Positions 16,749-50,542 of a stretch of DNA of 64,000 nt are shown here, one piece after another (the first letter of the stretch is position 1; each line of letters opens with the position of its first letter). Source of the DNA: Parcubacteria group bacterium Greene0416_36. Lineage in GTDB: Bacteria > Patescibacteriota > Patescibacteriia > VMEV01. The translations under genes and the position numbers were made by a program. The notes under the pieces were generated by a model. That model searched no databases. It worked only from the letters and a program-made list of their open reading frames with translations, and was not told the origin of the DNA. The DNA lies in NCBI GenBank assembly GCA_007375725.1, contig VMEV01000004.1, forward strand, positions 5,021-69,020, in the 5' to 3' direction.

Positions 16749-17618
16749 ATGACAAAACATCCTATGAAACGTCTTCTCTATTCCCTACTCATCTGTTTAT
16801 TTTTCCTCCCCTTCAGCCTCCTCGCCGCGGACACCAATATCACCCCTCAGATGAATGTCCCGATACCGTTTATAAATATAACGGACAATGTCGCGCAGGG
16901 CTCGCCGATTCCTTGGATTTCTGACTATATCACCGGCCTCTACACCCTCAGCTACACCGTTGCGGGACTCTTGGCCATCATTATGATCCTCCTCGGCGGC
17001 TTTCTCTGGGCCTCCTCCGCCGGCAACCAGAACCAAGTCGGCAAAGGCAAAGAAATGATCACCTCCGCCATCGCTGGAATCGTGGTCATTCTGTGCAGTT
17101 ATTTGATTTTGTATTTAATCGGAGGGGCAAGATTGACGACGATTACGGAGTTGACTGCAACCAAAATTTACACTACCGAAGAACGCAATAAAGCCTACGA
17201 AAAAACTATAGCTGAACGCACTCCAATATTAACAAAACTCCGCGAGACTAAGAATCAAACTCTTTTGGCATCGGTGAAAGCCTACGATGCCAGTGCAAAA
17301 ACTTATGAAGACTTAAAAACAGCCAAATTAACATTCGATGAAGTTTATGCAAAATACTCAAAAATAGCCCTAGAATACATCGAAAACCCAGACGATATCC
17401 CCACAAAACAAGCATATGAACAAGCCAAACTAGCTAACAAACAAGCAGCTAGTGATCTTACTGCAGCCGAAAATGCCAATAGGCAAGCTTATGATGCATA
17501 TCTCAAAGCCGCAGCAATTTATAAACAAGCTTATGATGCATATCCCGAAACAGCTGCCAGTGAACAGGCCGAAGCTGAAGCTTTTGACGAAGCATTCAAC
17601 AGAAATTTAGCACAATAA
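16749..17618 (+). CDS. TrbC/VirB2-like pilin paralog with long Ala/Tyr/Lys-rich coiled-coil C-terminal extension
   Basis: 289 aa. Signal peptide, then the family core (PQMNVPIPFI...GLLAIIMILLGGFLWASSAGNQNQVGKGKEMITSAIAGIVVILCSYLILYLIGG), then about 170 aa with repeated QAYDAY motifs. Confidence 0.6.
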   Translation: MTKHPMKRLLYSLLICLFFLPFSLLAADTNITPQMNVPIPFINITDNVAQGSPIPWISDYITGLYTLSYTVAGLLAIIMILLGGFLWASSAGNQNQVGKGKEMITSAIAGIVVILCSYLILYLIGGARLTTITELTATKIYTTEERNKAYEKTIAERTPILTKLRETKNQTLLASVKAYDASAKTYEDLKTAKLTFDEVYAKYSKIALEYIENPDDIPTKQAYEQAKLANKQAASDLTAAENANRQAYDAYLKAAAIYKQAYDAYPETAASEQAEAEAFDEAFNRNLAQ

Positions 17619-20589: not shown

Positions 20590-21534
20590 ATGATTTTTTA
20601 TCTAAAAAACTGGCTTAATTATCTGTTTTTTCGTATGAAAAGATATCTAATATCAGCTTTTTTCGCACTAGTAGCCATCAGCATGGCTCTACTTCCTGTT
20701 GCAACAAAGGCCGAATTAACCGTGATAGTACCACAAATGAATGTCCCCCTTCCATTTATTGGTCCCTTCTCAGCTCCAGATGAAAAAGGAGAAGTGCTTC
20801 AATTCGCCTGGATTGCGGAATATATTATTGGTCTCTACAAAATCATCATCGCGATCTCAGGGTTCTTGGCGATCATCATTATTCTTGTCGCCGGATTTCT
20901 CTGGGTCTCAAGCATGGGAAATCATAGCCAAATCGCTCAGGCCCACAGCATGATACAGGGCGCCCTAGCTGGAATCGTCGTGATTATGAGCTCGTACCTG
21001 CTCTTGTCTCTCATCAATCCAGCACTCTTGAAGCCAGGTACCCTCACGATTTCCAAAGCATTAGCCAAGAATACCCCTTTTGACGATAATGGCAGTAAGG
21101 CCCGCATCGAAGAAACCGAAGCTCAATTCATTCGAGCATTTGCGGATTGCGCCAATAAGCCAAATCCTGAACTCTGCCGAAATATTGCCAGAGAAATACT
21201 CGTGGATACTTTAATCGTAATGGCGGACGAAAAAAAATTACCTTTCCCTGCTGGAACCATTCAAGTCTCAAAAAACGCCCCCCAAAGAGTCAATGACCTG
21301 CTCAAAGCAAACCCGACAATGACCACGAAAGAAGCAATTGACATTGCCATCAAATGCCAAGAATATGATATGGATATGGTCTATCTACGACTCAATCACC
21401 TCTACAATGCCGACGAGACTTTCAATACGACAGTAAACCCAAATCTTTACCCTCATAAAAGTTACCGCGAACAAAGCCCTCACGATGCCTTTGTTTACGT
21501 CTTCCAAGAAGCACAAAAAAAGGGATGTTACTAA
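20590..21534 (+). CDS. TrbC/VirB2-like pilin paralog with C-terminal globular extension
   Basis: 314 aa. Shares the PQMNVPLPFI motif and core (GFLAIIIILVAGFLWVSSMGNHSQIAQAHSMIQGALAGIVVIMSSYLLLSLINP) with the 16749 gene and the 40.5-48 kb array. Alternative start at Met16 (20635). Confidence 0.55.
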   Translation: MIFYLKNWLNYLFFRMKRYLISAFFALVAISMALLPVATKAELTVIVPQMNVPLPFIGPFSAPDEKGEVLQFAWIAEYIIGLYKIIIAISGFLAIIIILVAGFLWVSSMGNHSQIAQAHSMIQGALAGIVVIMSSYLLLSLINPALLKPGTLTISKALAKNTPFDDNGSKARIEETEAQFIRAFADCANKPNPELCRNIAREILVDTLIVMADEKKLPFPAGTIQVSKNAPQRVNDLLKANPTMTTKEAIDIAIKCQEYDMDMVYLRLNHLYNADETFNTTVNPNLYPHKSYREQSPHDAFVYVFQEAQKKGCY

Positions 21535-33559: not shown

Positions 33560-33598
33560 AAAATGTAAGGGCACAGAATTCTGTGCCCTTACATTTTT
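33560..33598. terminator. palindromic terminator AAAAATGTAAGGGCACAGAATTCTGTGCCCTTACATTTTT serving tRNA-Ser (+) and the convergent helicase gene (-)
   Basis: Perfect palindrome with A/T-run flanks; overlaps the last codons and stop of the minus-strand helicase ORF. Confidence 0.65.
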
Positions 33599-38144: not shown

Positions 38145-39527
38145 GTGACTTGTAACTTTCTTTTTTACATTTTTATACTCCTAACCTTCCTCCTTCCCCT
38201 CGAACGCCTGGGTTCTTTTGAATTCTGGGGTATCACTATACGATTTTCACAACTCATATTATTGGTAATCTTAGCATTACTGCCCTTCTGCATCCCTTTT
38301 TCAAAAATCAAAAACCTCTACTTTTCCAATAAAAAACTTTATTTTTCACTCATTTTATTTATCACTATTGCCGCTTTCTCAATCATCCAGAGCATAAATG
38401 TTGCTCGCTCATTATTTATTTTTTTCGCCACCCTTTTCACCGCCTCCCTCGCCTTCGTTATCCCCCTCGTCATCGACACCGAAGCCAAACTCCGCCAAAC
38501 TATCGGCGCGTTATTCATCACCACGACTCTCGCCTGTCTCTTCGGCCTCTACCAATTCACCGCCGACATGCTCGGCGCGCCCACTTCATGGACCGGCCTC
38601 CTCCCTCGCTACGCCCACGAAATCCTCGGCTTCTCCCGCATCCAGTCCACCTTCGCCGAACCCCTCTACTTCGCCAATTTTTTATTCCTCCCATTTTTTC
38701 TAGCCCTCGCTTATTTTCTAAACCAACCCCGTCATCCTCGAGAGCCCGGAGGGCTCATCGGGGATCCAGACCCTCAACTACTAAAAAAAAATACATCCCC
38801 TTTCACCGATCCACACCTATTGATGGGTTTGTTGCTCACCTCCCTCCTCCTCACCACCTCCCGCGGCGCTTATCTCGGCCTCCTCGCCGGATGCGCCTTC
38901 TTCCTCATTTTCGCCTACCGCAAAATCTTCTCAAAACATTATTTCTTCTCTCTATTCAAAATCGGCTTGGCCTCAATCATCCTCTCTTTCTCACTTCTCC
39001 AAATAGGATCCTCCACTCAAACAAAATCATTCTTCGAACACACCCAAATCCCCACCGACTCCGGATCGTTCCTCGAGCGCAAAGAGACCTTCACCAAGGC
39101 TTGGCAATTATTTCTCCAAAAACCTCTCCTTGGCCACGGCATCGGATCTTTCGGGCCTCATCTGTCCGCAGATCCTCAAATTCCGCCGGCAGGAGGCTTT
39201 AAAATCGTAAACAATCAATATCTGGAACTAATGGCCGAAGTGGGAATATTAGGAATCGTGCCCATCACCGTCTTTTTTATTCTGCTCATCACCCAAGCAA
39301 TTTCTCTTTTAAAAACACAAACTCAAATTTCTTCCCATAGCCCCTTAAATCCTTCCACAAACGACCGGCGCAGATTACTTCTTCTTGGACTAACCAGCGC
39401 CATTATCGCGATCCTTGCTCAATACATGACCCTTAGCACACTTTATATGATGCAGATGTGGTTCGCGATAGGACTTCTCATCGCCGCCATACGGATATTG
39501 TCATCCAAAACAAATGTGTTAGGTTGA
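38145..39527 (+). CDS. O-antigen ligase (Wzy_C)-family polytopic membrane protein
   Basis: 460 aa, at least 10 TM helices. Wzy_C-like loop (LLTTSRGAYLGLLAGCAFFL) followed by a large periplasmic loop. Locally C-rich composition (38.4-39.2 kb) compared with the rest of the window. Confidence 0.55.
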   Translation: MTCNFLFYIFILLTFLLPLERLGSFEFWGITIRFSQLILLVILALLPFCIPFSKIKNLYFSNKKLYFSLILFITIAAFSIIQSINVARSLFIFFATLFTASLAFVIPLVIDTEAKLRQTIGALFITTTLACLFGLYQFTADMLGAPTSWTGLLPRYAHEILGFSRIQSTFAEPLYFANFLFLPFFLALAYFLNQPRHPREPGGLIGDPDPQLLKKNTSPFTDPHLLMGLLLTSLLLTTSRGAYLGLLAGCAFFLIFAYRKIFSKHYFFSLFKIGLASIILSFSLLQIGSSTQTKSFFEHTQIPTDSGSFLERKETFTKAWQLFLQKPLLGHGIGSFGPHLSADPQIPPAGGFKIVNNQYLELMAEVGILGIVPITVFFILLITQAISLLKTQTQISSHSPLNPSTNDRRRLLLLGLTSAIIAILAQYMTLSTLYMMQMWFAIGLLIAAIRILSSKTNVLG

Positions 39528-40400: not shown

Positions 40401-40488
40401 ACAACAAATCCCCCTCAGTCCCCCTTTGACAAGGGGGAGGTAACAGCCCCCTCCCTTGTCAAAGGGAGGGTTGGGGAGGGATTTGTTG
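40401..40488 (-). repeat. composite double-hairpin palindromic repeat, copy 6 (inverted orientation)
   Basis: CAACAAATCCCCCTCAGTCCCCCTTTGACAAGGGGGAGG-TAACAGCC-CCCTCCCTTGTCAAAGGGAGGGTTGGGGAGGGATTTGTTG at convergent gene ends. Confidence 0.8.
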
Positions 40489-40497
40489 TTATTTCCC

Positions 40498-40902
40498 CTA
40501 TACCAATTCCCCCGCCCCCGCTGCCAGGGCCAAGGCCACGATCAGATACGAAATAGACACCACGATAATACCGATAACCGCGTTCTTGATAATTTCCTTC
40601 GCCTCATCCACCTGCGACGAATTCCCAGCCGCCGTGATCCAACGGAAGCCGCCATATACTGAGTAGAGCACCGCCAAGGTGCCGATCACCCCCAAACACA
40701 ATTTCACAATGGCACCCACTCTGGTCGATAAAGTGGAAGTATCTCCTTTTGTACGCAAACCCGCTTGCTCTGAAGAAGCATCAAGCGTTTTCCCAATCGC
40801 TTGAATTCCGGTTTTGGGTTGGGCATAGGCAAACCCCATTGGCATCAAAAATACAGATGCCATCAAGATGAAACTCAAGAATATTTTTTTTAAAAAAGTC
40901 AT
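40498..40902 (-). CDS. TrbC/VirB2-like pilin paralog 1 (signal peptide + two-TM core)
   Basis: 134 aa. Signal peptide ending AYA-QP. Core LCLGVIGTLAVLYSVYGGFRWITAAGNSSQVDEAKEIIKNAVIGIIVVSISYLIV. Confidence 0.65.
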   Translation of the reverse strand: MTFLKKIFLSFILMASVFLMPMGFAYAQPKTGIQAIGKTLDASSEQAGLRTKGDTSTLSTRVGAIVKLCLGVIGTLAVLYSVYGGFRWITAAGNSSQVDEAKEIIKNAVIGIIVVSISYLIVALALAAGAGELV

Positions 40903-40911
40903 ATAATTTGA

Positions 40912-41331
40912 TTATTTACCGCCACTCGATAGCTGAATCGCCACCGCAATAATAATATAGGCAAATGTAACTATTGCCAAGCCAATGCAGGCATTTGTCA
41001 CGGTCTGTTTGGCCGCATCCACCTTCCCCGAATCCCCCCCCGCCGTAACCCACTGAAACCCGCCGTAGATGATGAAAATGACCGTCACCGTACCGATGAG
41101 CATGATGAAAAATTGGATGACTTCACCAAAACGAGAAGTGATATCTATGATAGTTTGACTGCGTCCACCCTGAGAGGTGACTTGAGACCCTTCAGTCATG
41201 CCACTCGAAGTTGTAGTCTCTAACAATTCCCCTGAGGCTTTTTGGAAACCCTTCTTTTCTTCCGCCAATACAAAAAGCGGACTGAGTAAAGCCATCAAAG
41301 AAAATAGAATTGGGAGAAGTGATCGAAACAT
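40912..41331 (-). CDS. TrbC/VirB2-like pilin paralog 2
   Basis: 139 aa. Signal peptide. Core IGTVTVIFIIYGGFQWVTAGGDSGKVDAAKQTVTNACIGLAIVTFAYIII. Confidence 0.65.
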   Translation of the reverse strand: MFRSLLPILFSLMALLSPLFVLAEEKKGFQKASGELLETTTSSGMTEGSQVTSQGGRSQTIIDITSRFGEVIQFFIMLIGTVTVIFIIYGGFQWVTAGGDSGKVDAAKQTVTNACIGLAIVTFAYIIIAVAIQLSSGGK

Positions 41332-41424
41332 AGGGGAAAAAGTTGGATAAAAAGACAGGAGATCCCCGATCCGCCTGACGGCTCTCGGGGATGATTTAAA
41401 TTTCGCTTGGGGGCTAAATTTAAA

Positions 41425-41853
41425 TCATTTGAATACCGTATCAATCGCACTCTTGAGCGCGAACGAGCTGATCGAATAGGCGGAAATCACGATAATAAGG
41501 CCGATCACGGCATTCTTAAGCCAAGCCTTAGCTTCGTCAATCTGAGCAGAATCACCTCCGGCAGTCATGTATTTCCATCCGGCCCAGAGGATGATCAAAG
41601 TCAGAACCGTCCCCAAAAAGGTAAGGATGATCTTGATGATATTGACCACCGTATCAATGAGATCCGCCTGGGTCTGGTCCTCACTAGTGGCGGCATATCC
41701 CGCCCCCGTCGCCACCTTCTCCGCGTCCAACACCGCCTGATCCAGAAAACGCTGAGCAGACACGGGAGCCAGAGGCAAAGCGACTAAGCCGAGACTGACT
41801 AGAAATAGAGATATTTTTCGAAACATAACAAAATAAATTAAATATACAGCCAA
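41425..41853 (-). CDS. TrbC/VirB2-like pilin paralog 3
   Basis: 142 aa. Core LGTVLTLIILWAGWKYMTAGGDSAQIDEAKAWLKNAVIGLIIVISAYSI. Confidence 0.65.
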   Translation of the reverse strand: MAVYLIYFVMFRKISLFLVSLGLVALPLAPVSAQRFLDQAVLDAEKVATGAGYAATSEDQTQADLIDTVVNIIKIILTFLGTVLTLIILWAGWKYMTAGGDSAQIDEAKAWLKNAVIGLIIVISAYSISSFALKSAIDTVFK

Positions 41854-41857
41854 ACAA

Positions 41858-41947
41858 CAAACCCATCCCCAACCCTTCCCTTAACAAGGAAGGGAGAACT
41901 CGCAAATGCCTCCCCTGTTAAAGGGAGGTTAGGTGGAGTTTGTTGCT
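41858..41947 (+). repeat. variant copy of the composite repeat (TTAACAAGGAAGGG subtype) inside the pilin array
   Basis: CAACAAACCCATCCCCAACCCTTCCCTTAACAAGGAAGGGAG...CCTCCCCTGTTAAAGGGAGGTTAGGTGGAGTTTGTTG. Same architecture with diverged hairpin sequences. A second copy of this subtype is at 61688-61790. Confidence 0.7.
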
Positions 41948-42450
41948 TACCCATTCAAAAACTCACTCGTCCTAAGCGAATTGAGCACAAAACTGGTAAT
42001 CAGCCAAGCAAATGAGACAATCAGGACTCCCATGACGGCATTGAAAATTAGGGCCTTTGCCTTGGAAACATCTTCCTCATTTCCTCCGGCCAAAAACCAA
42101 GTATAACCCGCATAGATCACAACTAGAAGCAAGACTGTACCGAGTGCGCTGAGCAAAGTCTGGAGTATCTGCCCGATATAAATATAAATATTGACCCTGC
42201 CGGTATTTTCTTTGTATCGAGGATCAATCGCGGGACCCAAATTTCCTAAGGCCTCACGAGTTCCTGCCAATCCAGGACGGTGTTGGCCGCTGGGTCCCAC
42301 AACCGGGTTCAAAGCACCTCCCATATCAAACAATCCAGGATCTTCCGCTTTGCCTATAGGAGCAAAAGACAATACCAACGAAAAAACAATCATACAAACT
42401 GCCACTATTCTTTTTACTAGCATTCCGGTTTTATTCATATTCGTATTCAA
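41947..42450 (-). CDS. TrbC/VirB2-like pilin paralog 4
   Basis: 167 aa. Core LSALGTVLLLVVIYAGYTWFLAGGNEEDVSKAKALIFNAVMGVLIVSFAWLI. Track start overlaps the upstream paralog by 20 nt, so the true start may be an internal Met (MNKTGML or MLVKRIV). Confidence 0.6.
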   Translation of the reverse strand: MNTNMNKTGMLVKRIVAVCMIVFSLVLSFAPIGKAEDPGLFDMGGALNPVVGPSGQHRPGLAGTREALGNLGPAIDPRYKENTGRVNIYIYIGQILQTLLSALGTVLLLVVIYAGYTWFLAGGNEEDVSKAKALIFNAVMGVLIVSFAWLITSFVLNSLRTSEFLNG

Positions 42451-42910
42451 TAGTGGATTGCTTGATCGAACTCAACACAAAGGCCGTAATGCCCCAAGAC
42501 AACATAATGATCATAAGGCCGATAAATCCATTGATCAGCCATTTTTTTGCGGTCTCTACCTGATCCGCATTGCCCCCAGCCATAGCCCAGAGATAACCGG
42601 CGTAGAGAGTCATGGATAAAAATATAATTCCCAGAAACCCCAAAGCAATGCGCACGATCTGCACGATCAATTCAGTGAGGCCCGCTTTTCCTTCCTTCCG
42701 AATATCATACGACCCTCCGGCGATAAACTTCATGCGGCTGCGCGATAATTCATTTGACCCCGCCCTGCCTTCCGGATTTTGGGTGATGGATTCAGCATCG
42801 CCTGGGGTGACCGTTTTACCTGTTCCCGACGGCTGAGCCATAGCTGGAGTAGAAAAACCACCCCAACCCATAGCGACCGCCAAGAATAATAAAACTATTT
42901 TCCGAATCAT
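42431..42910 (-). CDS. TrbC/VirB2-like pilin paralog 5
   Basis: 159 aa. Core LGFLGIIFLSMTLYAGYLWAMAGGNADQVETAKKWLINGFIGLMIIMLSWGI. Confidence 0.65.
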   Translation of the reverse strand: MIRKIVLLFLAVAMGWGGFSTPAMAQPSGTGKTVTPGDAESITQNPEGRAGSNELSRSRMKFIAGGSYDIRKEGKAGLTELIVQIVRIALGFLGIIFLSMTLYAGYLWAMAGGNADQVETAKKWLINGFIGLMIIMLSWGITAFVLSSIKQSTIEYEYE

Positions 42911-42915
42911 AAAAA

Positions 42916-43341
42916 TTAATCAAACAAACTCGTAGGGATATCCACGGGATTGAGAGAGGCCACAATGAAATCAGTGATGAAATACGCGGCGGTAATAAGA
43001 ATCATACCGATGATGCCATTGGCAATCCATTTTCTCGCTTGATCTACCTGATCCGTATTGCCTCCAGCAGTCAGCCATAGAAACCCCGCGTAAATCACCA
43101 CGGCAAGCAAAATAAAACCCACAAAGGAGAGAATCGTCTTGATGATAAAACCCAAGGTCAGGTTCAGCTGGCGTTCCGATTCCGCTGCATCTGCCACCTT
43201 TTTTCCATAGCCTACCTGGGTCACGACTTGTACCCCGCCAAAGGGATCCGGCTTATCTTCCGCGAGCACAGGAATCGCAAAAAATCCGGCAAACAAAACC
43301 GCGGTAAACCCCATCAATAACATTTTCCTAAAAAAAATCAT
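42916..43341 (-). CDS. TrbC/VirB2-like pilin paralog 6
   Basis: 141 aa. Core LSFVGFILLAVVIYAGFLWLTAGGNTDQVDQARKWIANGIIGMILITAAYFI. Confidence 0.65.
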   Translation of the reverse strand: MIFFRKMLLMGFTAVLFAGFFAIPVLAEDKPDPFGGVQVVTQVGYGKKVADAAESERQLNLTLGFIIKTILSFVGFILLAVVIYAGFLWLTAGGNTDQVDQARKWIANGIIGMILITAAYFITDFIVASLNPVDIPTSLFD

Positions 43342-43353
43342 AAATTTCTACCT

Positions 43354-43398
43354 GTCATTGCGAGCCACCGCATTCTAGCGGTGGCGTGGCAATCTCAT
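43354..43398 (-). promoter_or_regulatory. conserved leader hairpin element (minus strand: ATGAGATTGCCACG-[GCCACCGC..GCGGTGGC]-TCGCAATGACA) directly upstream of pilin paralog 6
   Basis: Shares its flanks with the 46993-47035 element. The inner stem differs there but remains complementary (compensatory change). Confidence 0.4.
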
Positions 43399-43408
43399 GA
43401 ATAAACCC

Positions 43409-43840
43409 CTACCCCCTTTGCAAAAAAGCTCCGATCAAAAATCCCACAATCAAATAAGCTGTGGCGATAATAAAAATACCGATAGTCCCATTGGTCACCC
43501 ATTTCTTCGCCTGATCCACCTGATCGGAATTCCCTCCGGCCGTGAGCCACAGGAACCCTGCGTAAATGATCACCAAAAGCAAAATCACGCCCACCACTCG
43601 CAATATCCAAAATACCACCACACCCACAATGAAAAAAAAAGTGAATTCTTCCCTCCCCGCCTGATAATCCGTATCACCAAATCCCTCTCGAGCGATATCT
43701 TGTAGATATCCAGCTCCAGTAGCCCCAGGATCATTTCTACCTCCAGTTCCAGGTTCTACCGCAAAAACTATTACAGGAATAAATAACAAAAAAAAGCAGA
43801 TAAGTAATAAATTCAATTGATATATAATTTTTTTCCACAT
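43409..43840 (-). CDS. TrbC/VirB2-like pilin paralog 7
   Basis: 143 aa. Core VVGVILLLVIIYAGFLWLTAGGNSDQVDQAKKWVTNGTIGIFIIATAYLI. Confidence 0.65.
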   Translation of the reverse strand: MWKKIIYQLNLLLICFFLLFIPVIVFAVEPGTGGRNDPGATGAGYLQDIAREGFGDTDYQAGREEFTFFFIVGVVVFWILRVVGVILLLVIIYAGFLWLTAGGNSDQVDQAKKWVTNGTIGIFIIATAYLIVGFLIGAFLQRG

Positions 43841-43845
43841 AAAAA

Positions 43846-44271
43846 TTATGAAGCAATACGAGTCAGAGACTCAATAAACCCAGCTATAACATAGGAGGCC
43901 CCGACAATAATCGCGCCAATAGTACAATTAGTGATGATCGTTTTTGCTTTCTCCACTTGATCAGAATTACCTCCAGCAGTAAGCCACAGAATACCTGAGT
44001 AGATAATAAGAATCAACAATATTACTCCAACTAAAGACAAAAGTATTTTTACATAGCGAATAATTGTGCTGACCAAAATTAAATTGACAACTCCTCGAGT
44101 CTGCAATCCTTCTGTTGTTACTTTTATACCGCTAGTATTAACACTAGTATTGCTTAAAGCCGCATCCAACAACTTCCCTCCGCGTACTTTATCTTTCGTT
44201 GTATCTTGAGCAAAAACAAAACTAGGAACCAACAAAATCGACAGTAATAATGCAATCAAAATCTTTCTCAT
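43846..44271 (-). CDS. TrbC/VirB2-like pilin paralog 8
   Basis: 141 aa. Core LVGVILLILIIYSGILWLTAGGNSDQVEKAKTIITNCTIGAIIVGASYVI. Confidence 0.65.
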   Translation of the reverse strand: MRKILIALLLSILLVPSFVFAQDTTKDKVRGGKLLDAALSNTSVNTSGIKVTTEGLQTRGVVNLILVSTIIRYVKILLSLVGVILLILIIYSGILWLTAGGNSDQVEKAKTIITNCTIGAIIVGASYVIAGFIESLTRIAS

Positions 44272-44278
44272 ACGATTT

Positions 44279-44692
44279 TTAACTTGTAGTTTGAGTCGCG
44301 AGCAAGATAAAGGCCGTTATCGCATAGGCCGTGCCAATAATCAGGGCACCCATAAAGGCATTGAATATAAGCGTCCGCGCCTCGGCGGCCTTGTCCGTAT
44401 TGCCCCCAGCCGTGAGCCACAAAAATCCGCCGTAGATAATGATGATCAAAATCACGAGACCTAGAAACTGCAGGGCCTGCTCAATCAATTTACCAATACG
44501 CTGGGCTAACCCAGTGGCAGTGGCATCATCTTTTTTTTCTGACAAAGAAGCTTTTTCCATGGTTGTACTAAAAAAACCATCTCCCTTCATAATAGTCTCC
44601 GAAACCGAAGCCGATACAAAACCAACATTGACCCCGAATAACATCACCAGAGCCATGGAACTTAAAAATAATTTTTTGAAAAATGAAGGCAT
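44279..44692 (-). CDS. TrbC/VirB2-like pilin paralog 9
   Basis: 137 aa. Core LGLVILIIIIYGGFLWLTAGGNTDKAAEARTLIFNAFMGALIIGTAYAI. Confidence 0.65.
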   Translation of the reverse strand: MPSFFKKLFLSSMALVMLFGVNVGFVSASVSETIMKGDGFFSTTMEKASLSEKKDDATATGLAQRIGKLIEQALQFLGLVILIIIIYGGFLWLTAGGNTDKAAEARTLIFNAFMGALIIGTAYAITAFILLATQTTS

Positions 44693-44697
44693 AAAGT

Positions 44698-44934
44698 TTA
44701 AAATTTTCCTAAAGCTTTTAGAAATTCTTCAACCGAGATTTTCGATTGTTTCAATACACCCATCAACATTCCCCTTTTTAAATCCTTGCTATGATAAGGC
44801 AAAATAACTCTCCTCGTGGCATCTAACGAATGTATCAATTTAATATGGCTTCCCTTCTGCGAAATCACTTTAAATCCCAAACTGAGGAGCAATTGTAACA
44901 CTTCCTTTGCCTTCAAAATCGGAATAATACTCAT
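44698..44934 (-). CDS. hicA: HicA-family toxin (mRNA interferase)
   Basis: 78 aa. KAKEVLQLLLSLGFKVISQKGSHIKLIH matches the HicA/YcfA K..L...GF....KGSH..H core. Immediately downstream of hicB. Confidence 0.65.
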   Translation of the reverse strand: MSIIPILKAKEVLQLLLSLGFKVISQKGSHIKLIHSLDATRRVILPYHSKDLKRGMLMGVLKQSKISVEEFLKALGKF

Positions 44935-44937
44935 ACA

Positions 44938-45138
44938 TTACCTTGAGGTCTCCAAAGCAAATTCTATTGCCTCTCTTGCCATATACTTTGCCTCTACCAG
45001 ACTATCTCCCCCAGTCACAATTTCAGGAATTTTCATCACTCGAACAATATAGCCTTTTTCATCATTGTTCCTTTCAAAACGAGTATCAAAAACCCCTTTT
45101 TTCGTCTTCAATCTGAATTTTTTTATTTTTCTTAACAT
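44938..45138 (-). CDS. hicB: HicB-family antitoxin (UPF0150/HicB N-terminal-domain-like)
   Basis: Start chosen at internal Met (MLRKIKK...), giving 66 aa. GYIVRVMKIPEIVTGGDSLVEAKYMAREAIEFALE is a typical HicB RNase-H-fold antitoxin segment. The longer track ORF (to 45294) would overlap the upstream pilin gene on the same strand. Confidence 0.55.
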   Translation of the reverse strand: MLRKIKKFRLKTKKGVFDTRFERNNDEKGYIVRVMKIPEIVTGGDSLVEAKYMAREAIEFALETSR

Positions 45139-45140
45139 AT

Positions 45141-45587
45141 TTATAAAGGTGTAATCAAAGCCGTGGTAAGACCCTTTGTGATGAAGCTTATCAAGACATA
45201 CGAACTGCCGCAAATCACAATCGCAATCACCGAGTTCACCAATATCCTCTTCCCTTCCCCCGCCTGATCCGAATTCCCCGCCGCCGTAGTCCACAAATAC
45301 CCTCCGTAGACCACATATCCCAATGCCACGGTACCAATGATGGACAGGGCAATGCCCATGTAGCGGCCGATTTGATTGACTACCACTAAACGAGCATCGG
45401 AGAGAACGTCTGTTCCTTCTTCTCTTGATATAGTCTCATCTAAATTTGTCTGCGATAAACCACCACCTTCATTGTCTGCTCCTAACATTTTATTGACAAG
45501 TGTAGGATTAAGTTGTGCATACAATAAAATAGGAAGACAAAATACTAAACTTACAGAAACAGATAAAATCGAAACAATTCGCTTCAT
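45141..45587 (-). CDS. TrbC/VirB2-like pilin paralog 10
   Basis: 148 aa. Core IALSIIGTVALGYVVYGGYLWTTAAGNSDQAGEGKRILVNSVIAIVICGSSYVLI. Confidence 0.65.
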   Translation of the reverse strand: MKRIVSILSVSVSLVFCLPILLYAQLNPTLVNKMLGADNEGGGLSQTNLDETISREEGTDVLSDARLVVVNQIGRYMGIALSIIGTVALGYVVYGGYLWTTAAGNSDQAGEGKRILVNSVIAIVICGSSYVLISFITKGLTTALITPL

Positions 45588-45593
45588 AAATTT

Positions 45594-45983
45594 CTATCCA
45601 GCTAAAGCCAATACTACAAAATTAGTCAGTGTATACGCACCCATTAAAATCACCATCCCAATCACCGCGCTGGAGATAATTTCCTTGGACTCATCTATTT
45701 TCGCCTGATCGCCTTTTGCCGTGAGCCACAGAAATCCAGCATATACTACATAACCAAGAGCAATCACACCCAAAAACCCATAGATAACAGACAAAACCTG
45801 GCCGATATAGACGGCGGGGCTTTTGGCACCTTCTGCGGTTATCTCATATCCGGATTTCTCAGCAAATATGTTCAGTTTCCCAACAGGATCTGGGTTTTCG
45901 GCGGCCAATACCCAAAAAGGCAACATTAAAAATATTACACTCGATAAAAAAATAAAAGTTTTTTGAAAAAATGAGTGTCTCAT
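45594..45983 (-). CDS. TrbC/VirB2-like pilin paralog 11
   Basis: 129 aa. Core GFLGVIALGYVVYAGFLWLTAKGDQAKIDESKEIISSAVIGMVILMGAYTL. Confidence 0.65.
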   Translation of the reverse strand: MRHSFFQKTFIFLSSVIFLMLPFWVLAAENPDPVGKLNIFAEKSGYEITAEGAKSPAVYIGQVLSVIYGFLGVIALGYVVYAGFLWLTAKGDQAKIDESKEIISSAVIGMVILMGAYTLTNFVVLALAG

Positions 45984-45986
45984 AAT

Positions 45987-46409
45987 TTATTTAACTTCTA
46001 CACCCGTAATCACATTGGTACCCAGCTGACTGATCGCGAAATTGGCTAGGGAATAAGCCCCAAAAATAATCACAAGGCCGATACCCCCATACAATAAAAT
46101 CTTCTTGGCAGTATCAACCTTCGAGGAATCTCCCGCGGCCGTGAGATACAAAAATCCGGCATAAATGATAATAAGCAATGCAAAAATACCTAGGATACCA
46201 AGGATAGATTGGATAATACCTCCGGAATATTGAATGAAGGCTTCTTGTTCCACCTTGCCTCCTCCTTCAAAGGCTTGCGAAGCCTTTCCTGTTTCCATTA
46301 GCCCCGTTGACAATGGATCAGCAGCCAAAATATTCGAACCCAAACCAAAAGACAGGACTCCGACTAGGATTCCCGACAATAAAATTTTATTTCGGAGAAA
46401 ATTTCGCAT
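45987..46409 (-). CDS. TrbC/VirB2-like pilin paralog 12
   Basis: 140 aa. Core LGILGIFALLIIIYAGFLYLTAAGDSSKVDTAKKILLYGGIGLVIIFGAYSL. Confidence 0.65.
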   Translation of the reverse strand: MRNFLRNKILLSGILVGVLSFGLGSNILAADPLSTGLMETGKASQAFEGGGKVEQEAFIQYSGGIIQSILGILGIFALLIIIYAGFLYLTAAGDSSKVDTAKKILLYGGIGLVIIFGAYSLANFAISQLGTNVITGVEVK

Positions 46410-46453
46410 ATAAAATCTTCGTTTGAAGAAGTAGAAAAAAGATATCCCTATTT

Positions 46454-46487
46454 GTCTGTAGGGGCGCAGCGCGCTGCGCCCCTACAG
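46454..46487. repeat. GTAGGGGC-family palindrome TCTGTAGGGGCGCAGCGCGCTGCGCCCCTACAGA in an intergenic gap of the pilin array
   Basis: Perfect 34-bp palindrome. Unlike other family members it lacks flanking A/T runs. Confidence 0.6.
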
Positions 46488-46583
46488 ACAACATGTCCTT
46501 TTTCTGCTTCTTCCTCCGAGCCCTTCAGCTCGGAGAGAAGAAAAGATTATAGATATAACAATTAGCTAGCTTATTGCTATCTC

Positions 46584-46982
46584 CTATCCTTGTAAACCTG
46601 TAGCAACGGTGAGTTGCTGGAGCACGAAAGTCGTGATCGCAAACGCGGACAAAATGATCACCAAACCGATAATACCGGCCTGAATGAGCTTTTTAGCTTC
46701 GTCTGTCTTATCGCTGGAACCTCCGGCAGTCATCCATTTGAAACCACCCATGAGGATGATCACCACGGCGACAGTACCCAAAAATCCCATGATAATGCGG
46801 ATCAAAGCGGCAATCGTTTCACGTGGATCGCGCTGTCCGAGTCCGGTATTTTTCTGAAAATTGATGCCGAATACGTCCTCAGCTGCGCCCACAGCCACGG
46901 GGACCGCCAGCATATTGAGAGACATAATCACCGACATGATTCCTACACCTAATTTTTTCATCATAATATCACCCCCTTTCAT
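46584..46982 (-). CDS. TrbC/VirB2-like pilin paralog 13
   Basis: 132 aa. Core MGFLGTVAVVIILMGGFKWMTAGGSSDKTDEAKKLIQAGIIGLVIILSAFAI. Confidence 0.65.
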   Translation of the reverse strand: MKGGDIMMKKLGVGIMSVIMSLNMLAVPVAVGAAEDVFGINFQKNTGLGQRDPRETIAALIRIIMGFLGTVAVVIILMGGFKWMTAGGSSDKTDEAKKLIQAGIIGLVIILSAFAITTFVLQQLTVATGLQG

Positions 46983-46992
46983 TTTTTATAGT

Positions 46993-47035
46993 GTCATTGA
47001 GAGTCCTGCGTTTTAGCAGGACGTGGCAATCTCAT
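46993..47035 (-). promoter_or_regulatory. conserved leader hairpin element (minus strand: ATGAGATTGCCACG-[TCCTGC..GCAGGA]-CTCTCAATGACA) upstream of pilin paralog 13
   Basis: Second copy of the 43354 element. The inner stem sequence differs but remains complementary. Confidence 0.4.
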
Positions 47036-47097
47036 ATAAAACATCAATACATTATTAGCCTAAGTATAGAAAAAAGACGAATTTTTGCAAATCTTTC

Positions 47098-47466
47098 TTA
47101 CTTGGCACCGATGCTGGCAAGCACATAACTGAGAATCGCGTAACTGCCAAACGCCACGATAATCCCGATCACGGCCCATACCAAGGTATCTATCCCCTTC
47201 TTCACCTTCTCCGAATTACCCCCCGAAGTCAAAAAATAAAACCCTCCGATGATAAAAAACACGAGCGACAATATACCCACAAGCCCCAGCATAGCCTGCA
47301 CTACTTGACCAACCAATTGGGGAACAGATGTTATACCCTCGAGAGGATTTGGCAATTGATTTTTTGGATCTGGTTTAGCTGTCATCAAAAGAGGCAATGA
47401 CCAGACAATCAAAGATGAATATAATATTCTAAAAAACGATTTCATATTTATAAATATCTTAATCAT
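47098..47466 (-). CDS. TrbC/VirB2-like pilin paralog 14
   Basis: 122 aa. Core LGLVGILSLVFFIIGGFYFLTSGGNSEKVKKGIDTLVWAVIGIIVAFGSYAI. Confidence 0.6.
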   Translation of the reverse strand: MIKIFINMKSFFRILYSSLIVWSLPLLMTAKPDPKNQLPNPLEGITSVPQLVGQVVQAMLGLVGILSLVFFIIGGFYFLTSGGNSEKVKKGIDTLVWAVIGIIVAFGSYAILSYVLASIGAK

Positions 47467-48029
47467 TATTTAGTGAAATCCCCTGCCTTGCCTTCCTGAA
47501 TCGTACCATCCGTAGGGTGTTTATAAGGTTCGACGATAGGACACTTGCACTTATCAAAAATAGGCTTAAAATTCCAGACCCCGTTTTCCCAAACACCTTC
47601 AAATTTAAGAGCTTCTGTCTTTTCCTCACTAACGGACCCCAAAAGCAAACTCGCAAATACAAATCCTACTATCTGATAGGCGGCTAACATGATGAATAAA
47701 CCAATAAAAGCTGATTTTATGATCTCTTTTCCTTTTTCTACTTGGCTTGAATTTCCAGCGGAAGTCACCCAGAAAAATGCCCCCACCACAATCATGAAAA
47801 CAACAATTCCTCCAACCAAAGTCCAGAGAACATTAGCAAGGCTAATGCCCACTTTAAAAAAATCACAAAAACCATATTCAGTATTTGGCACTGATCTACC
47901 ACCAACATAACTGGGACATGACGGAGTGGGAATAATCTGAGCTTTGACAGGCATAGGAGCCACACATAATCCCACAGAGATCAAAATCGAAAATACCGTA
48001 AATATAATTTGTATCAATTTTTTACGCAT
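47466..48029 (-). CDS. TrbC/VirB2-like pilin paralog 15 with Cys-rich N-terminal insert and C-terminal extension
   Basis: 187 aa. Core LWTLVGGIVVFMIVVGAFFWVTSAGNSSQVEKGKEIIKSAFIGLFIMLAAYQIV. Extra 60-aa tail with a CKCP motif. Confidence 0.6.
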   Translation of the reverse strand: MRKKLIQIIFTVFSILISVGLCVAPMPVKAQIIPTPSCPSYVGGRSVPNTEYGFCDFFKVGISLANVLWTLVGGIVVFMIVVGAFFWVTSAGNSSQVEKGKEIIKSAFIGLFIMLAAYQIVGFVFASLLLGSVSEEKTEALKFEGVWENGVWNFKPIFDKCKCPIVEPYKHPTDGTIQEGKAGDFTK

Positions 48030-48031
48030 AA

Positions 48032-49435
48032 TTATTCGACAATTCTCGATACCGTAGTCTGTTCCACCTTATCCGCGGCATTTCCGATGATATCTTTCAG
48101 TTTATACTCCCCTTTATTCGCTTGGTCAATCATATCACGGAAAATGGATTCCACGGCGAGAGGCTCGTAGCCCTTGTACCAGCTTTTCGCGGTCAGAATT
48201 TGCTCGGCAAAGGGCCCCATTTCGACATCTTCGATCTGAGAGAGAACCAAGGATCGCAGAGCCGTGGGCTTTTTGGCTTTTGCGAGATAGCCTTTGGCGG
48301 CATCCGCGGAACTGATGAATTTGAGGAGATCCCAGGCTTCATTTTGAAAACGCGATTTTTTTGATACCACTTCTACGAAATAATTCGCGAAATTGACTTC
48401 TGGATTGCCGGGAATCTGGGGGACCTTGCCGATAGCGTAGTTGAGCTTCGGCGCGCGCTGTTTGACGACAGGTATATGATAGGAATACCCAAAGAAAAAT
48501 GCCAGCCGGCCGGAGATAAAGGCGTCCAGAGAGTTCGGCATGTCCGGAGTCCAGGTGTACACCTCTTTGACCGGAGAAGAAAAATCGGTATAAAAACGCA
48601 CGGCCTCTTCGCCGGGGGCGATCACGCGCTTCTCGGCCAGTTCCTGAGGCATCTCATGAAATTTGATGTCGCGGTCCAGGGTTTCCATCACCGCGCCGTT
48701 TTGCATCATCAGAAGCGACAAAATATCGCTGGAACGCTCGACATTTGAAGCTGTCCCCAAGGCGGCGCCCGAGAGAATTATACGGCCACTATCATCCACA
48801 CGGACGATTTTTTTGACCGCCTGCTGGAACTCGCTCCAGGTGGCGGGCGGAGTCGGGATACCCGCATTGTTGAGAATATCTTTATTATAAAACATGACCA
48901 GGGTATCGAAGCCCAAGGGCGCGCCAAAAATCTTCTGAGCCCCGGTCGTCCTATCTTCCCATATCACGTCATAGGCGACCTGATCCACAAAATTATTGAG
49001 AATATGAGGAACCGTAATGCCTCGACTGGTCTGGAGTTCAATCACCTGTTCTTTTTTTATCGTGCCTCGCATCACGGGAATGGGGAGCGTGGTAGTCTCC
49101 GGAGCCGTTGCCAGCTTCGGAATATATTCACCCACCCAGGTATTGTGCAGCGTGAACATATCCGGCCCGCGATCCTCAGCAAAAGCATTAAGCAGTTCAT
49201 CCCGATACTCTTCGAAACGAAACTTTTTATATTCCACACTGATATTGGGATGCATTTGCTTATAGGCGGCAAATGCGTCCGTGAGCATATCCTCATCCTC
49301 AAAGACTCTCCAATACTTAAGCGTCACAGGAGTAAAAGCCTGCTTGGCCTCTTCCGACCCACCCTTGCAGCCAATCCCTGTAGTGACGAGGAGTGCAAGT
49401 ATTAAAAATAATGGAAGTAGTCGAGCGAATGGCAT
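48032..49435 (-). CDS. extracellular solute-binding lipoprotein (ABC-transporter SBP family 1-like), orphan
   Basis: 467 aa. Lipobox LVTTGIGC. SBP-like core (TLKYWRVFEDEDMLTDAFAAYKQMHPNISVEY...GAPLGFDTLVMFYNKDILNNAGI..PPATWSEF). No permease or ATPase genes adjacent. Ends 2 bp before the first pilin paralog. Confidence 0.65.
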   Translation of the reverse strand: MPFARLLPLFLILALLVTTGIGCKGGSEEAKQAFTPVTLKYWRVFEDEDMLTDAFAAYKQMHPNISVEYKKFRFEEYRDELLNAFAEDRGPDMFTLHNTWVGEYIPKLATAPETTTLPIPVMRGTIKKEQVIELQTSRGITVPHILNNFVDQVAYDVIWEDRTTGAQKIFGAPLGFDTLVMFYNKDILNNAGIPTPPATWSEFQQAVKKIVRVDDSGRIILSGAALGTASNVERSSDILSLLMMQNGAVMETLDRDIKFHEMPQELAEKRVIAPGEEAVRFYTDFSSPVKEVYTWTPDMPNSLDAFISGRLAFFFGYSYHIPVVKQRAPKLNYAIGKVPQIPGNPEVNFANYFVEVVSKKSRFQNEAWDLLKFISSADAAKGYLAKAKKPTALRSLVLSQIEDVEMGPFAEQILTAKSWYKGYEPLAVESIFRDMIDQANKGEYKLKDIIGNAADKVEQTTVSRIVE

Positions 49436-49443
49436 AAATAAAG

Positions 49444-49524
49444 CAACAAATCCCCCTTAGTCCCCCTTTGACAAGGGGGAAACAACGCCCTCCCTTGTCA
49501 AAGGGAGGGTTGGGGAGGGATTTA
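49444..49524 (-). repeat. composite double-hairpin palindromic repeat, copy 8 (inverted orientation)
   Basis: CAACAAATCCCCCTTAGTCCCCCTTTGACAAGGGGGAAACAACGCCCTCCCTTGTCAAAGGGAGGGTTGGGGAGGGATTT between galU and the SBP gene. Confidence 0.8.
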
Positions 49525-49528
49525 GTAG

Positions 49529-50401
49529 TTATAACTTCAACCCCTTCAAATACTCTCGGAGACCCTTCGCCACTTCCGGATGCTTAAGCCCGTAATCCAC
49601 CGTAGCCTTTACATATCCCAACTTATCTCCGCAATCATAACGCACTCCTTCAAATTCACATCCATAGAGAGGCTTGGTTTTGATCCATTCATTGAAAGCT
49701 CCGGCCAGGCGAATCTCGCCGCCGCTATCAGGTTCAATATCCTCCAGCATGGACAATACCCCAGGAGTCAGAATATATTTGCCCACCACAATCAAATTGC
49801 TGGGAGCTTCTTCGACTTTTGGCTTTTCGGCAAACTGTTGAATTTCATGAACCCGGCCCCCTAATTCAACTGACCCCACCACCCCGTAACGAGACACCTC
49901 TTCTTTCGGGACTCGCATAAGGGCCACCACTGGATCTCCATATTTTTCATATACTTCCATCAATTGGCCAATGCATGGAACCTTCGAATCCACCACATCA
50001 TCGCCAAACAAAACAGCCACCGCTTCATTTTTTCCGACCAGATTGCGAGCCATCAAAACCGCGTGCCCGTCTCCCAGAGGCTGAGGCTGGCGCACATACG
50101 CAAACGCAGCCAAAGATGACACATGCCTGACTATTTCCATCAAATCTTTTTTGCCTTTTGCCTCCAGCTTCTGCATGAGTTCATACGAATAATCAAAGTG
50201 ATCCTCAATCGCACGTTTGCCGATGCTGGTGATAAAAATAATTTCCTCAATGCCGGACGCCACAGCTTCCTCCACCAGATACTGGATCACCGGTTTATCA
50301 ACAATCGGAAGCATTTCTTTTGGCTGGGCCTTTGTCGCGGGCAGAAATCGCGTTCCCATCCCCGCCACCGGAATAATCGCTTTTTTAATTTTCATAGTCA
50401 T
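49529..50401 (-). CDS. galU: UTP--glucose-1-phosphate uridylyltransferase
   Basis: 290 aa; KAIIPVAGMGTRFLPATKAQPKEMLPIVDKPVIQY N-terminal signature and overall GalU layout. Confidence 0.9.
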   Translation of the reverse strand: MTMKIKKAIIPVAGMGTRFLPATKAQPKEMLPIVDKPVIQYLVEEAVASGIEEIIFITSIGKRAIEDHFDYSYELMQKLEAKGKKDLMEIVRHVSSLAAFAYVRQPQPLGDGHAVLMARNLVGKNEAVAVLFGDDVVDSKVPCIGQLMEVYEKYGDPVVALMRVPKEEVSRYGVVGSVELGGRVHEIQQFAEKPKVEEAPSNLIVVGKYILTPGVLSMLEDIEPDSGGEIRLAGAFNEWIKTKPLYGCEFEGVRYDCGDKLGYVKATVDYGLKHPEVAKGLREYLKGLKL

Positions 50402-50502: not shown

Positions 50503-50542
50503 AAAAACGTAAGGGCACGGTGCACCGTGCCCTTACGTTTTT
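50503..50542. terminator. palindromic terminator AAAAACGTAAGGGCACGGTGCACCGTGCCCTTACGTTTTT at the 3' end of the 50533..51762 gene
   Basis: Perfect palindrome flanked by A and T runs. Identical core to the dnaN terminator at 62590-62631. The gene's TAA stop lies inside the GTAAGG arm. Confidence 0.65.

Follow-up and report, generated by a model that had tools for sequence, protein, structure and literature searches.

A large part of bacterial diversity falls to the Patescibacteria, which live off other cells and possess few conventional transporters. How they take up host material is the setting of this analysis, and one genetic study has found a series of VirB2-like pilin genes and a type IV secretion system (T4SS) to be essential, the pilin series being a set of six genes that Ca. 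Southlakia epibionticum ML1 carries within its T4SS cluster (Wang et al. 2023, PMC10633639). A 2025 review highlights this series (PMC12857230), and a survey described 441 VirB2 arrays of 2-11 genes in 383 Patescibacteria assemblies, with a mean identity of 25% and a maximum of 54% (Quinonero-Coronel et al. 2025, PMC12102498). We analyzed a 64-kb stretch of contig VMEV01000004.1 of Parcubacteria group bacterium Greene0416_36 (the window), which carries an array of 15 genes of this kind led by the gene of a solute-binding protein (SBP). The operon is chromosomal, lies near the origin of an ultra-small, ABY1-class Patescibacterium from groundwater, and joins a sugar-type SBP lipoprotein to 15 old, diverged members of the Pfam family PF18895 (T4SS_pilin). 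Our best reading, which we favor with modest confidence, is that the products are co-assembling subunits of a T4SS-dependent surface filament.

Arrays of this type have already been published for Patescibacteria (2023-2025), and the window array is a large example with some undescribed internal organization. Like the published arrays it belongs to PF18895 and the same phylum, its genes are in tandem on one strand, and their identity is low (mean 29% and maximum 41% over the full length). It differs in three respects. There are 15 genes here, and 16 in a related locus that we call L036, as compared to the published range of 2-11; the array is neither in nor near a T4SS cluster and is led by a conserved SBP gene and a GalU-like gene; and it starts with a conserved three-gene head that includes a member resembling a major subunit. 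We found no mention of the SBP/GalU lead, the three-gene head or the distance from the T4SS in PMC12102498 or PMC10633639. Four details appear to be undescribed: the conserved SBP-led operon, the candidate major subunit, fusions of several units in one polypeptide, and a link to a family of Mycoplasma integrative and conjugative elements (ICEs).

The open reading frame (ORF) map of the window places the 15 paralogs on the minus strand between 40498 and 48029. From pil01 to pil15 they encode 134, 139, 142, 167, 159, 141, 143, 141, 137, 148, 129, 140, 132, 122 and 187 aa. A MAFFT alignment (n=17) revealed a common architecture in these genes and in two longer paralogs elsewhere in the window. 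All 17 proteins begin with a hydrophobic, signal-peptide-like N-terminal leader that ends in an A-x-A-type or A-x-A-like site; a hydrophilic spacer follows, variable in both length and sequence. Two hydrophobic helices come next, and the turn between them, (Y/W)-x-G-(F/Y)-x-W-x-T-A-G-G-(N/D/S)-x-x-x-(V/I)-x-x-A-K, is present in 17/17. Hydropathy analysis likewise gave a leader and two membrane segments in each paralog. When the six-frame translation of the window was searched with a profile of the paralog core, exactly 17 ORFs were matched and no others (E 2e-25 to 5e-32); the two longer paralogs, which a preliminary description of this DNA had placed at 16749 and 20590, were among them. Core identity among the array paralogs averages 35% (maximum 53%), whereas leader and spacer together average 23%. 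The alignment of all 17 paralogs that had been proposed as a check separates a conserved turn from a variable N-terminal spacer, which is the pattern expected of pilins when that spacer is exposed.

The first gene after the SBP gene is pil15 (47466..48029), which starts 2 bp past the SBP stop codon and carries a C-terminal extension of about 60 aa, extracytoplasmic and with Cys residues. The short pil14 (47098..47466) occupies the second head position, overlaps the pil15 stop by 1 nt and is the most TrbC-like member of the array. It is followed by pil13 (46584..46982), and then by the first three tail paralogs, pil12 (45987-46409), pil11 (45594-45983) and pil10 (45141-45587), which are spaced by 3-6 bp. 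Beyond an insertion described below lie the further tail paralogs pil09 (44279-44692), pil08 (43846-44271), pil07 (43409-43840), pil06 (42916-43341), pil05 (42431-42910) and pil04 (41947-42450), and the distal tail is formed by pil03 (41425-41853), pil02 (40912-41331) and pil01 (40498-40902). The nearest in-array paralog of pil13 is pil03 (45% core identity), and pil06 is similar to the final gene of many related arrays. Judged from the sequence, the true starts of pil13 (46964; MMKKLG..., 126 aa), pil03 (41826) and pil04 (42423) are probably downstream of their longest-ORF starts. Intergenic gaps had been given as mostly 3-8 bp; junctions are indeed mostly ≤9 bp, and five are larger (67, 93, 93, 115 and 174 bp). 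Because the array consists of 15 complete genes on one strand that are mostly 2-9 bp apart, its genes are probably co-transcribed.

The 15 genes had been described as consecutive, which is not strictly the case. Between the sixth and seventh paralogs in transcription order are genes for a HicB-like antitoxin (44938-45138, minus strand, 66 aa; HicB_lk_antitox, a weak 17 bits) and a HicA toxin (44698-44934, minus strand, 78 aa; PF07927, 57.8 bits, E 1e-15), such that the array is split 6+9. The junctions of this pair are 2, 3 and 5 bp, making it seamless inside the operon, and no counterpart was found in the related arrays examined. By its appearance HicBA is a toxin-antitoxin insertion specific to this lineage, presumably transcribed together with the array, and it probably made the survey of PMC12102498 count the array as 9+6.

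Assignment to the T4SS pilin family enriched in the candidate phyla radiation (CPR), which had been suggested earlier, was borne out by Pfam. With a gathering cutoff of 26.6 bits, PF18895 was passed by 14/15 array genes (28.2-44.5 bits). From pil15 to pil10 the scores are 30.4, 41.2, 37.2, 37.0, 32.7 and 30.9 bits; pil09 falls below the cutoff with 22.2 bits; and from pil08 to pil01 they are 34.0, 34.5, 31.6, 33.4, 29.1, 44.5, 28.2 and 35.8 bits. The link to classical TrbC/VirB2 proteins is weaker than the heading of the preliminary description implied. PF04956 (TrbC/VirB2; cutoff 27.9 bits) matched pil14 (26.5 bits, E 7.5e-6) and pil12 (22.0 bits), both below the threshold and in the correct register, and none of the other 13 array genes. 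The NCBIfam model NF045849, 'Mbov_0395 family pilin-like conjugal transfer protein' (cutoff 40 bits), was matched above its cutoff by pil12 (43.7 bits) and below it by pil14 (38.6 bits), pil13 (30.4 bits) and pil06 (19.9 bits). As NF045849 is an 'equivalog' model for Mycoplasma ICE proteins, the match, which covers nearly the whole 80-residue model, denotes relatedness and not membership. At the level of profile similarity it connects the PF18895 family with a small hairpin protein that belongs to a conjugation system of MPF-FATA type in a monoderm.

Outside the window, in a set of 1.84 billion representatives, the paralog profile matched 86,133 with an E-value of 1e-3 or better, many of them with 2-8 units. 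These matches bear on the trivial explanation that we are dealing with small membrane proteins of separate descent, or with an artefact of annotation, which resemble one another in hydrophobic composition only and whose ORFs make up no functional set. Two-helix hydrophobic proteins do give spurious profile matches easily, and the fold search reported below is non-specific. However, the motif W-x-T-A-G-G-N-x-x-x-V-x-x-A-K, found in 17/17, is not hydrophobic, the profile combined very low E-values with no further matches in the window, and synteny is kept in more than 20 genomes. We regard this explanation, now vanishingly improbable, as already refuted by motif, profile, synteny and public matches.

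An AlphaFold2 (AF2) model of pil06, computed with the 17 paralogs as alignment, was confident, with a predicted local distance difference test score (pLDDT) of 79.6. It consists of a leader helix, a disordered segment (residues 23-46) and a long hairpin whose helices span 47-91 and 96-130 and whose tip is formed by the AGGN turn. Alignment, hydropathy and this model agree with the earlier description of a type-I signal peptide, two hydrophobic helices and a conserved turn as opposed to a class III signal. Type IV (class III, PilD-processed) prepilins were rejected as a candidate: the N-termini are of the Sec-type n-h-c form with A-x-A-like sites, there are two hydrophobic helices, and no N_methyl-type pilin Pfam matches occurred in the array genes. 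HHalign placed helix 1 and the Trp in register with A. tumefaciens VirB2, yet with P=0.027; it found nothing against F TraA. A tblastn search of 72,556 plasmids with pil14 returned no match.

The hairpin invites comparison with several described systems. With VirB2/TrbC/TraA (PF04956; T-, F-, RP4- and R388-pili) it shares a cleaved leader, a two-helix hydrophobic hairpin whose two termini face outward, a conserved loop of short length between the helices and the sub-threshold PF04956 matches. Unlike those pilins, the array proteins have much longer and more variable mature N-terminal extensions (25-60 aa), belong to a monoderm host and are encoded by many paralogs instead of one gene, and VirB4, VirB6 and VirB5 genes are not adjacent; no VirB3, VirB4, VirB5 or VirB6 is encoded in the window or within 10 kb of related arrays. 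Signals for cyclisation or acetylation did not come to light, and no search aimed at them was made. With the Mycoplasma Mbov_0395 family the common feature is the two-transmembrane (TM) hairpin of about 80 residues, matched nearly end to end, and the VirB4 of Patescibacteria is related to the MPF-FATA class, the class of T4SS found in the monoderm or wall-less Mbov_0395 lineage (PMC12102498). The Mycoplasma genes are, in contrast, single genes on a mobile ICE beside conjugation genes, whereas here a chromosomal 15-gene array accompanies an SBP gene, a mobile-element context is absent and one paralog passes the cutoff. Literature searches for an Mbov_0395 link found nothing relevant. The sequence link is relevant to the question of whether VirB2-like subunits are really absent from MPF-FATA-type systems of monoderms.

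Archaeal DNA-import systems provide a monoderm precedent for the pilin reading. TedC is a VirB2-like pilin with a disordered N-terminus that signal peptidase I processes, and T4SS components are sometimes encoded distally (Beltran et al. 2023, PMC9905601). Like Ced/Ted (CedA1, TedC), the window array would represent a chromosomal, 'domesticated' VirB2-like pilin in a monoderm with possibly distal machinery genes, and CedA carries a VirB2-like hairpin as its N-terminal part, a parallel to the fused and giant versions described below. The two differ in that no sequence similarity is detectable, that the archaeal pilins are single genes lacking an SBP, and that a role in DNA import would be conjectural for Patescibacteria.

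The SBP gene (48032..49435, minus strand, 467 aa; SBP_bac_1 90.4 bits, SBP_bac_8 83 bits) ends 2 bp before pil15, as had been noted and as the junction map confirmed. Because it has a signal peptide and an invariant Cys (..TTGIGC|KGG), the protein is probably a lipoprotein; the ..G(F/L/P)(G/I)C K motif was kept in 13/13 SBP homologs inspected. The nearest solved structures are all SBPs of sugar or oligosaccharide ATP-binding cassette (ABC) importers. In this the operon leader, a bona fide SBP_bac_1-fold protein nearest to sugar/oligosaccharide binders, resembles MalE-type SBP-dependent importers. It differs from them in that a permease or ATPase gene is absent from the operon in all loci examined and that two-TM hairpin proteins come after the SBP instead. 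The SBP gene of the window has no gene for an ABC permease or ATPase next to it, and BPD_transp and ABC_tran genes are absent from the operon here and in the related loci L032, L033 and L036. Upstream is a gene for a GalU-like UTP-glucose-1-phosphate uridylyltransferase (49529..50401, minus strand; NTP_transferase 109 bits).

Related loci were gathered by a motif scan with the four closest paralogs, one genome being kept per species, which gave 30 loci biased to the 'IYAGFLWLTAGGN' subtype. Those with informative titles are all Patescibacteria (Uhrbacteria, Falkowbacteria, Buchananbacteria and Kerfeldbacteria), and same-strand arrays of 5-10 members are the rule. SBP orthologs of 36-68% identity lie directly upstream of arrays in related genomes: 18 pilin-ascertained loci have a same-strand ortholog (36-49% identity) in this position, and three more SBP-led loci were reached, two from SBP homologs and one from a fused pilin. 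GalU is upstream of the SBP gene in 11/18 loci and in L032, L033 and L036; Wzy_C lies further upstream in 5 of the 18, and Polysacc_synt is also often nearby. SBP homologs form at least 120 clusters at ≥49% identity, and the organism-named ones are all from Patescibacteria or an unclassified 'bacterium'. Both of the SBP-homolog contexts that were sampled have the order GalU, SBP and 8-9 PF18895 genes, and their 20 kb contain no T4SS gene. The link between SBP and array did not turn up in literature searches. The SBP gene, which had been called an orphan, is the conserved leader of an operon in more than 20 genomes and no incidental neighbor.

Many third-party-annotation records of metagenome-assembled genomes (MAGs) with SBP-pilin arrays typical of Patescibacteria are titled 'uncultured Gammaproteobacteria bacterium', which looks like a placeholder or mislabel (L003, L004, L007-L011, L013, L014, L016, L017, L019, L021, L024, L026, L028 and L030).

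The head of the operon is positionally orthologous across these loci. Best-hit and distance analyses gave the order SBP, a long pil15-like gene with C-terminal extension, a short pil14-like gene and a pil13-like gene. The first gene after the SBP gene in relatives is usually long (138-242 aa), with pil15 or pil14 as its best window match in most cases, and the second is in many relatives a pil14-like gene of 111-139 aa. The head is followed by a tail of 2-12 paralogs without one-to-one orthology, and paralogs are often nearer to genes of other genomes than to one another.

The third head gene, pil13, stands out by its flanking signals. The 115-bp spacer that precedes its longest ORF (46983..47097, minus strand) reads as containing a promoter-like site, TTTGCA-17-TATACT, at 47091-47063. 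A strong Shine-Dalgarno (SD) sequence, AAAGGGGGTGAT, lies just past this site and before the ATG at 46964, within the first codons of the longest pil13 ORF. Orthologs of pil13 with 44-70% identity, mostly one per array, were present in 19/23 loci, and their mature N-terminus is conserved as well; no other orthogroup of the array is as clear or as well conserved. The SD motif occurred in 9/21 pil13 orthologs compared to 6/139 other paralogs (Fisher 6e-6), and the spacers that follow pil13 orthologs have a median of -37 kcal/mol per 100 nt compared to -10 for other spacers (Mann-Whitney 8e-7), both statistics being drawn from related loci that are phylogenetically non-independent. In the window the corresponding 174-nt spacer (46410..46583, minus strand) forms two predicted hairpins, with a minimum free energy of -81.6 kcal/mol (z = -10.0 relative to shuffles). 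Within it, a GC-rich palindrome with perfect 20+20 pairing (46452-46491) precedes a T-run, a terminator-like match; an Rfam scan of 39.5-51 kb gave nothing credible, and the spacer matched no Rfam family. These hairpins likely constitute a terminator, an attenuator or an mRNA stabilizer. Promoter-like site, strong SD sequence, hairpin and conservation across candidate phyla together suggest that pil13 is a candidate major subunit, as such signals would be the classical signature of the major structural subunit gene in a pilus or fimbrial operon. The pil13 orthogroup accordingly offers a target for further work.

Multiple VirB2 copies of Bartonella and Anaplasma have been proposed to serve an antigenic-variation-type role. 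A comparable role can be considered here, in which one or a few paralogs are used at a time as pilin and the rest provide antigenic, phase or host-range alternatives. Antigenic variation had been mentioned among the possible functions of the array, and the idea is also raised in PMC12102498. The paralogs do differ mainly in the exposed N-terminus (23% identity as compared to 35% in the core), and the tail varies from 2 to 12 members between genomes. On the other hand, all 15 genes are complete, have their own signal peptides and are probably co-transcribed from one strand; the paralogs are ancient, as the top full-length identity of 41% indicates; and the head positions are orthologous across candidate phyla. 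We saw no invertible promoter. DNA-level repetition among the paralogs is confined to the turn region (60-82% over 49-70 nt), and the tract of highest identity, 82% over 49 nt, is unsuited to gene conversion. Use of the paralogs one at a time is also contrary to the fusions described next, which force joint expression of several units. Antigenic variation is disfavored by the age of the paralogs, the orthologous head, the lack of gene-conversion tracts and the fusions, and we consider the repertoire explanation quite unlikely. Gene-conversion cassettes of the pilE/pilS type were rejected as a candidate, there being no silent partial copies and no shared DNA beyond 49-70 nt at 60-82%.

Among the public matches are single ORFs, here termed polypilins, with one signal peptide and 4-8 spacer-helix-turn-helix units (8-16 TM segments) and no internal leaders; P0123, P0125, P0126, P0127 and L036 8001-9284 were inspected. 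The last of these is a 4-unit polypilin gene in the tail of a 16-gene array led by GalU and SBP, which also holds the closest pil13 ortholog (70% identity). With 15 genes as compared to 16 in L036, the window array is large and not the largest. No mention of polypilins was found in PMC12102498. By Rosetta-stone logic, the fusions imply that the separate paralogs stand side by side in one assembly, and they argue that paralogs co-assemble and do not substitute for each other. With both termini of the hairpin predicted to be extracytoplasmic, fusion would be compatible with a filament wall and with a membrane ring alike. An AF2 model of the 4-unit P0127 computed without an alignment (pLDDT 57, predicted TM-score 0.34) contains four hairpins whose packing is uninterpretable.

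The hairpin module also occurs at the N-terminus of giant relatives of 1300-3100 aa (L016 9821-15328, L017 10007-19282 and L018 7374-14018, and further ones in L023, L026, L030 and L031), several of which lie next to ftsA and ftsZ. In the two that were Pfam-scanned, from L016 and L018, PF18895 (29.9-37.8 bits) is followed by Big_5 Ig-like repeats.

Does the array depend on a T4SS? A Pfam scan covered all large ORFs of the window. The earlier statement that VirB4, VirB6 and VirD4 are absent from the window stands, and inspection of 5 kb of contig past it, a check that had been suggested, found none of the three. Likewise, ten flanking ORFs sampled around array loci contained no T4SS machinery (Pfam; largest conserved clusters and ATPase-sized singletons). 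A protein identical to the window SBP belongs to the MAG 'Parcubacteria group bacterium Gr01-1014_18' (GCA_007376335.1, GTDB class ABY1, 1.04 Mb), which is in the survey dataset with VirB4 'Yes' in Table S1 (PMC12102498), and at least one relative with an array is VirB4-positive.

The main rival to the filament reading takes the absence of T4SS genes near SBP-led arrays, together with the weakness of the VirB2 evidence, at face value; it is these two points that sustain it. It holds that the hairpins form a T4SS-independent envelope assembly, a hetero-oligomer such as a ring, pore or scaffold that is embedded in the membrane or lies at the surface. Together with the sugar-binding lipoprotein and the neighboring genes of glycan synthesis, this assembly might, for instance, serve as a conduit for uptake fed by the SBP, or as a platform for adhesion or for anchoring glycans; 'T4SS pilin' would then be a misnomer for the ABY1 subtype. 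The conserved link of GalU and SBP, often accompanied by Wzy_C and Polysacc_synt and never with T4SS genes within 10 kb, fits this proposal, as do the genes flanking the window array, two of them of Wzy_C type and one for an MptB-like GT-C. So do the fused versions, which look like polytopic membrane proteins, the use of the module as N-terminal anchor of giant proteins with, in the two scanned, Big_5 repeats, and the weak fold and sequence evidence for VirB2 homology. Against it, PF18895 proteins are encoded inside the T4SS cluster and are essential in S. epibionticum (PMC10633639), and the family is near virB4 in 1135/1948 assemblies (PMC12102498). The significant and near-threshold matches to conjugation-associated pilin-like models, the VirB4-positive genome records and the lack of an accompanying ABC permease or ATPase gene for the SBP speak against it as well. 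We hold this alternative to be possible and on the whole doubtful. If it is true, the Pfam name and current models need revising.

A self-contained machine has also to be considered, in which the SBP-led hairpin operon of ABY1 builds, independently of a T4SS, a filament or pore of several kinds of two-helix subunit, one of them major and many minor, with a glycan-binding lipoprotein seated on it. The subunits would sometimes be joined as polypilins, and the machine would capture or import host saccharides or other molecules. We judge this improbable; if it were true, it would be a previously unrecognized SBP-dependent uptake or adhesion apparatus.

The reading as a T4SS-dependent filament, for its part, is opposed by several observations. 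The likeness to classical VirB2/TrbC is marginal and lies below family thresholds. Searched against all sequences of the PDB, the profile of the 17 paralogs found no solved pilin, returning chance matches to Nad3 (E about 1). A fold search with the hairpin matched ESCRT-III, chemoreceptor and ATP-synthase-c hairpins equally well, so that on this model the search does not discriminate VirB2/TraA pilins from other hairpins. None of the related SBP-led arrays examined has T4SS machinery within 10 kb; VirB4, VirD4 and VirB6 domains are missing from the large ORFs of the window and from the 5 kb of contig past dnaN, and the neighbors of the array are envelope-glycan genes (GalU, two Wzy_C, MptB-like GT-C, PBP1). 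The prominence of pil13 in expression is predicted from sequence signals, and the related loci are not phylogenetically independent. Finally, in the literature consulted, a filament of PF18895 proteins has not been reported experimentally in any organism.

Nonetheless, a T4SS-dependent filament best accounts for PF18895 membership, hairpin topology, the TrbC and NF045849 matches, the VirB4-positive genome record and published precedent, and it is further supported by the TedC parallel, polypilin co-assembly, the pil13 signature and the conserved SBP-led operon. In the mechanism that we propose, the products would be exported by Sec and cleaved by signal peptidase I, and the hairpins would form a pool in the membrane, their N- and C-termini facing outward and the TAGGN turn inward. 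A distally encoded VirB4-type T4SS would extract and polymerize them into a VirB2-like heteromeric filament or conduit. Within it pil13 would be the abundant bulk subunit, pil15 and pil14 conserved specialized subunits translationally coupled to the SBP, and the 12 tail paralogs minor or alternative subunits whose variable, outward N-termini would diversify the surface. Most speculatively of all, the SBP may give the structure glycan recognition. As a whole, the structure probably serves to touch a host cell or to draw material from it, a function that has been proposed for the essential S. epibionticum array. The operon provides a handle on the known system: across the sampled relatives it couples a sugar-binding protein to pilin-like genes.

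The glycan genes around the array are a Wzy_C gene (O-antigen-ligase/PglL-like) on either side, at 38145-39527 (plus strand) and 50533-51762 (minus strand), both identified by Pfam, a gene for an MptB-like GT-C mannosyltransferase (51772-53208, minus strand; NF038066, 41.9 bits) and one for a second polytopic protein with at least nine TM segments (53217-54776, minus strand). Given this context, the Ser/Thr/Gly-rich exposed N-termini of the paralogs may, speculatively, be glycosylated by products of the flanking Wzy_C/GT-C genes. Housekeeping genes of the window encode ClpP, RNase Y, ClpB/C, RadA, RecG, a DEAD helicase, Pol I, PBP1, glycogen synthase, RuvC, YebC and DnaN. The dnaN gene (62652-63761, minus strand) marks the end of the window; dnaA, rnpA and yidC follow in the next 5 kb of the 73.9-kb contig, which places the array about 15 kb from the replication origin region. 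Proximity to the origin has been linked with a high dosage of T4SS genes (PMC12102498).

The two longer paralogs are on the plus strand. The first (16749..17618, 289 aa; PF18895 30.0 bits, core hidden Markov model E 9e-26) consists of signal peptide and hairpin module and, at its C-terminus, about 160 aa of additional helical sequence. The second (20590..21534, 314 aa; E 2e-25 with the same model) shares 52% core identity with it, gave no match in a Pfam scan and lies between radA and recG. Both thus sit around radA (19014-20477) and recG (21539-23647). T4SS loci of ABY1 commonly contain radA, recG and comF (PMC12102498); virB4 is absent near these two paralogs in the window.

The operon from SBP to pil01 is bounded on both sides by copies of a palindromic repeat, one between GalU and SBP (49444..49526) and one directly past the pil01 stop codon (40405..40490), the latter being likely a bidirectional terminator. 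This intergenic repeat is composite and about 85-110 nt long. Its two hairpins are tcccccTTTGACAAggggga and CCCTCCCTTGTCAAAGGGAGGG, and its outer arms, caacaaatcccc and ggggagggatttgttg, pair with each other. Near-exact copies of its core hairpins occur at 3927-3948, 6618-6639, 7209-7230, 20528-20549, 38041-38062, 40449-40470, 49488-49509 and 51806-51827, i.e. 8 in 64 kb as compared to 0 expected. A degenerate copy lies upstream of pil03 (41853-41894, core 41873-41894). The element resembles a repetitive extragenic palindrome or miniature inverted-repeat transposable element (REP/MITE-like), or a bidirectional terminator. A 42-nt inverted repeat around pil01-pil03 was rejected as an invertible element, as it consists of two copies of this genome-wide palindromic intergenic repeat.

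Elsewhere in the window, an IS66-family transposase gene (1053-2510, minus strand; PF03050, 131 bits) is unusual for a streamlined CPR genome. A gene for a protein with helix-turn-helix and SocA/Panacea antitoxin domains (32640-33314, minus strand) adjoins one for a PIF1-like helicase with a C-terminal WYL domain (33589-35238, minus strand), and these two may be a defense or toxin-antitoxin-related pair.

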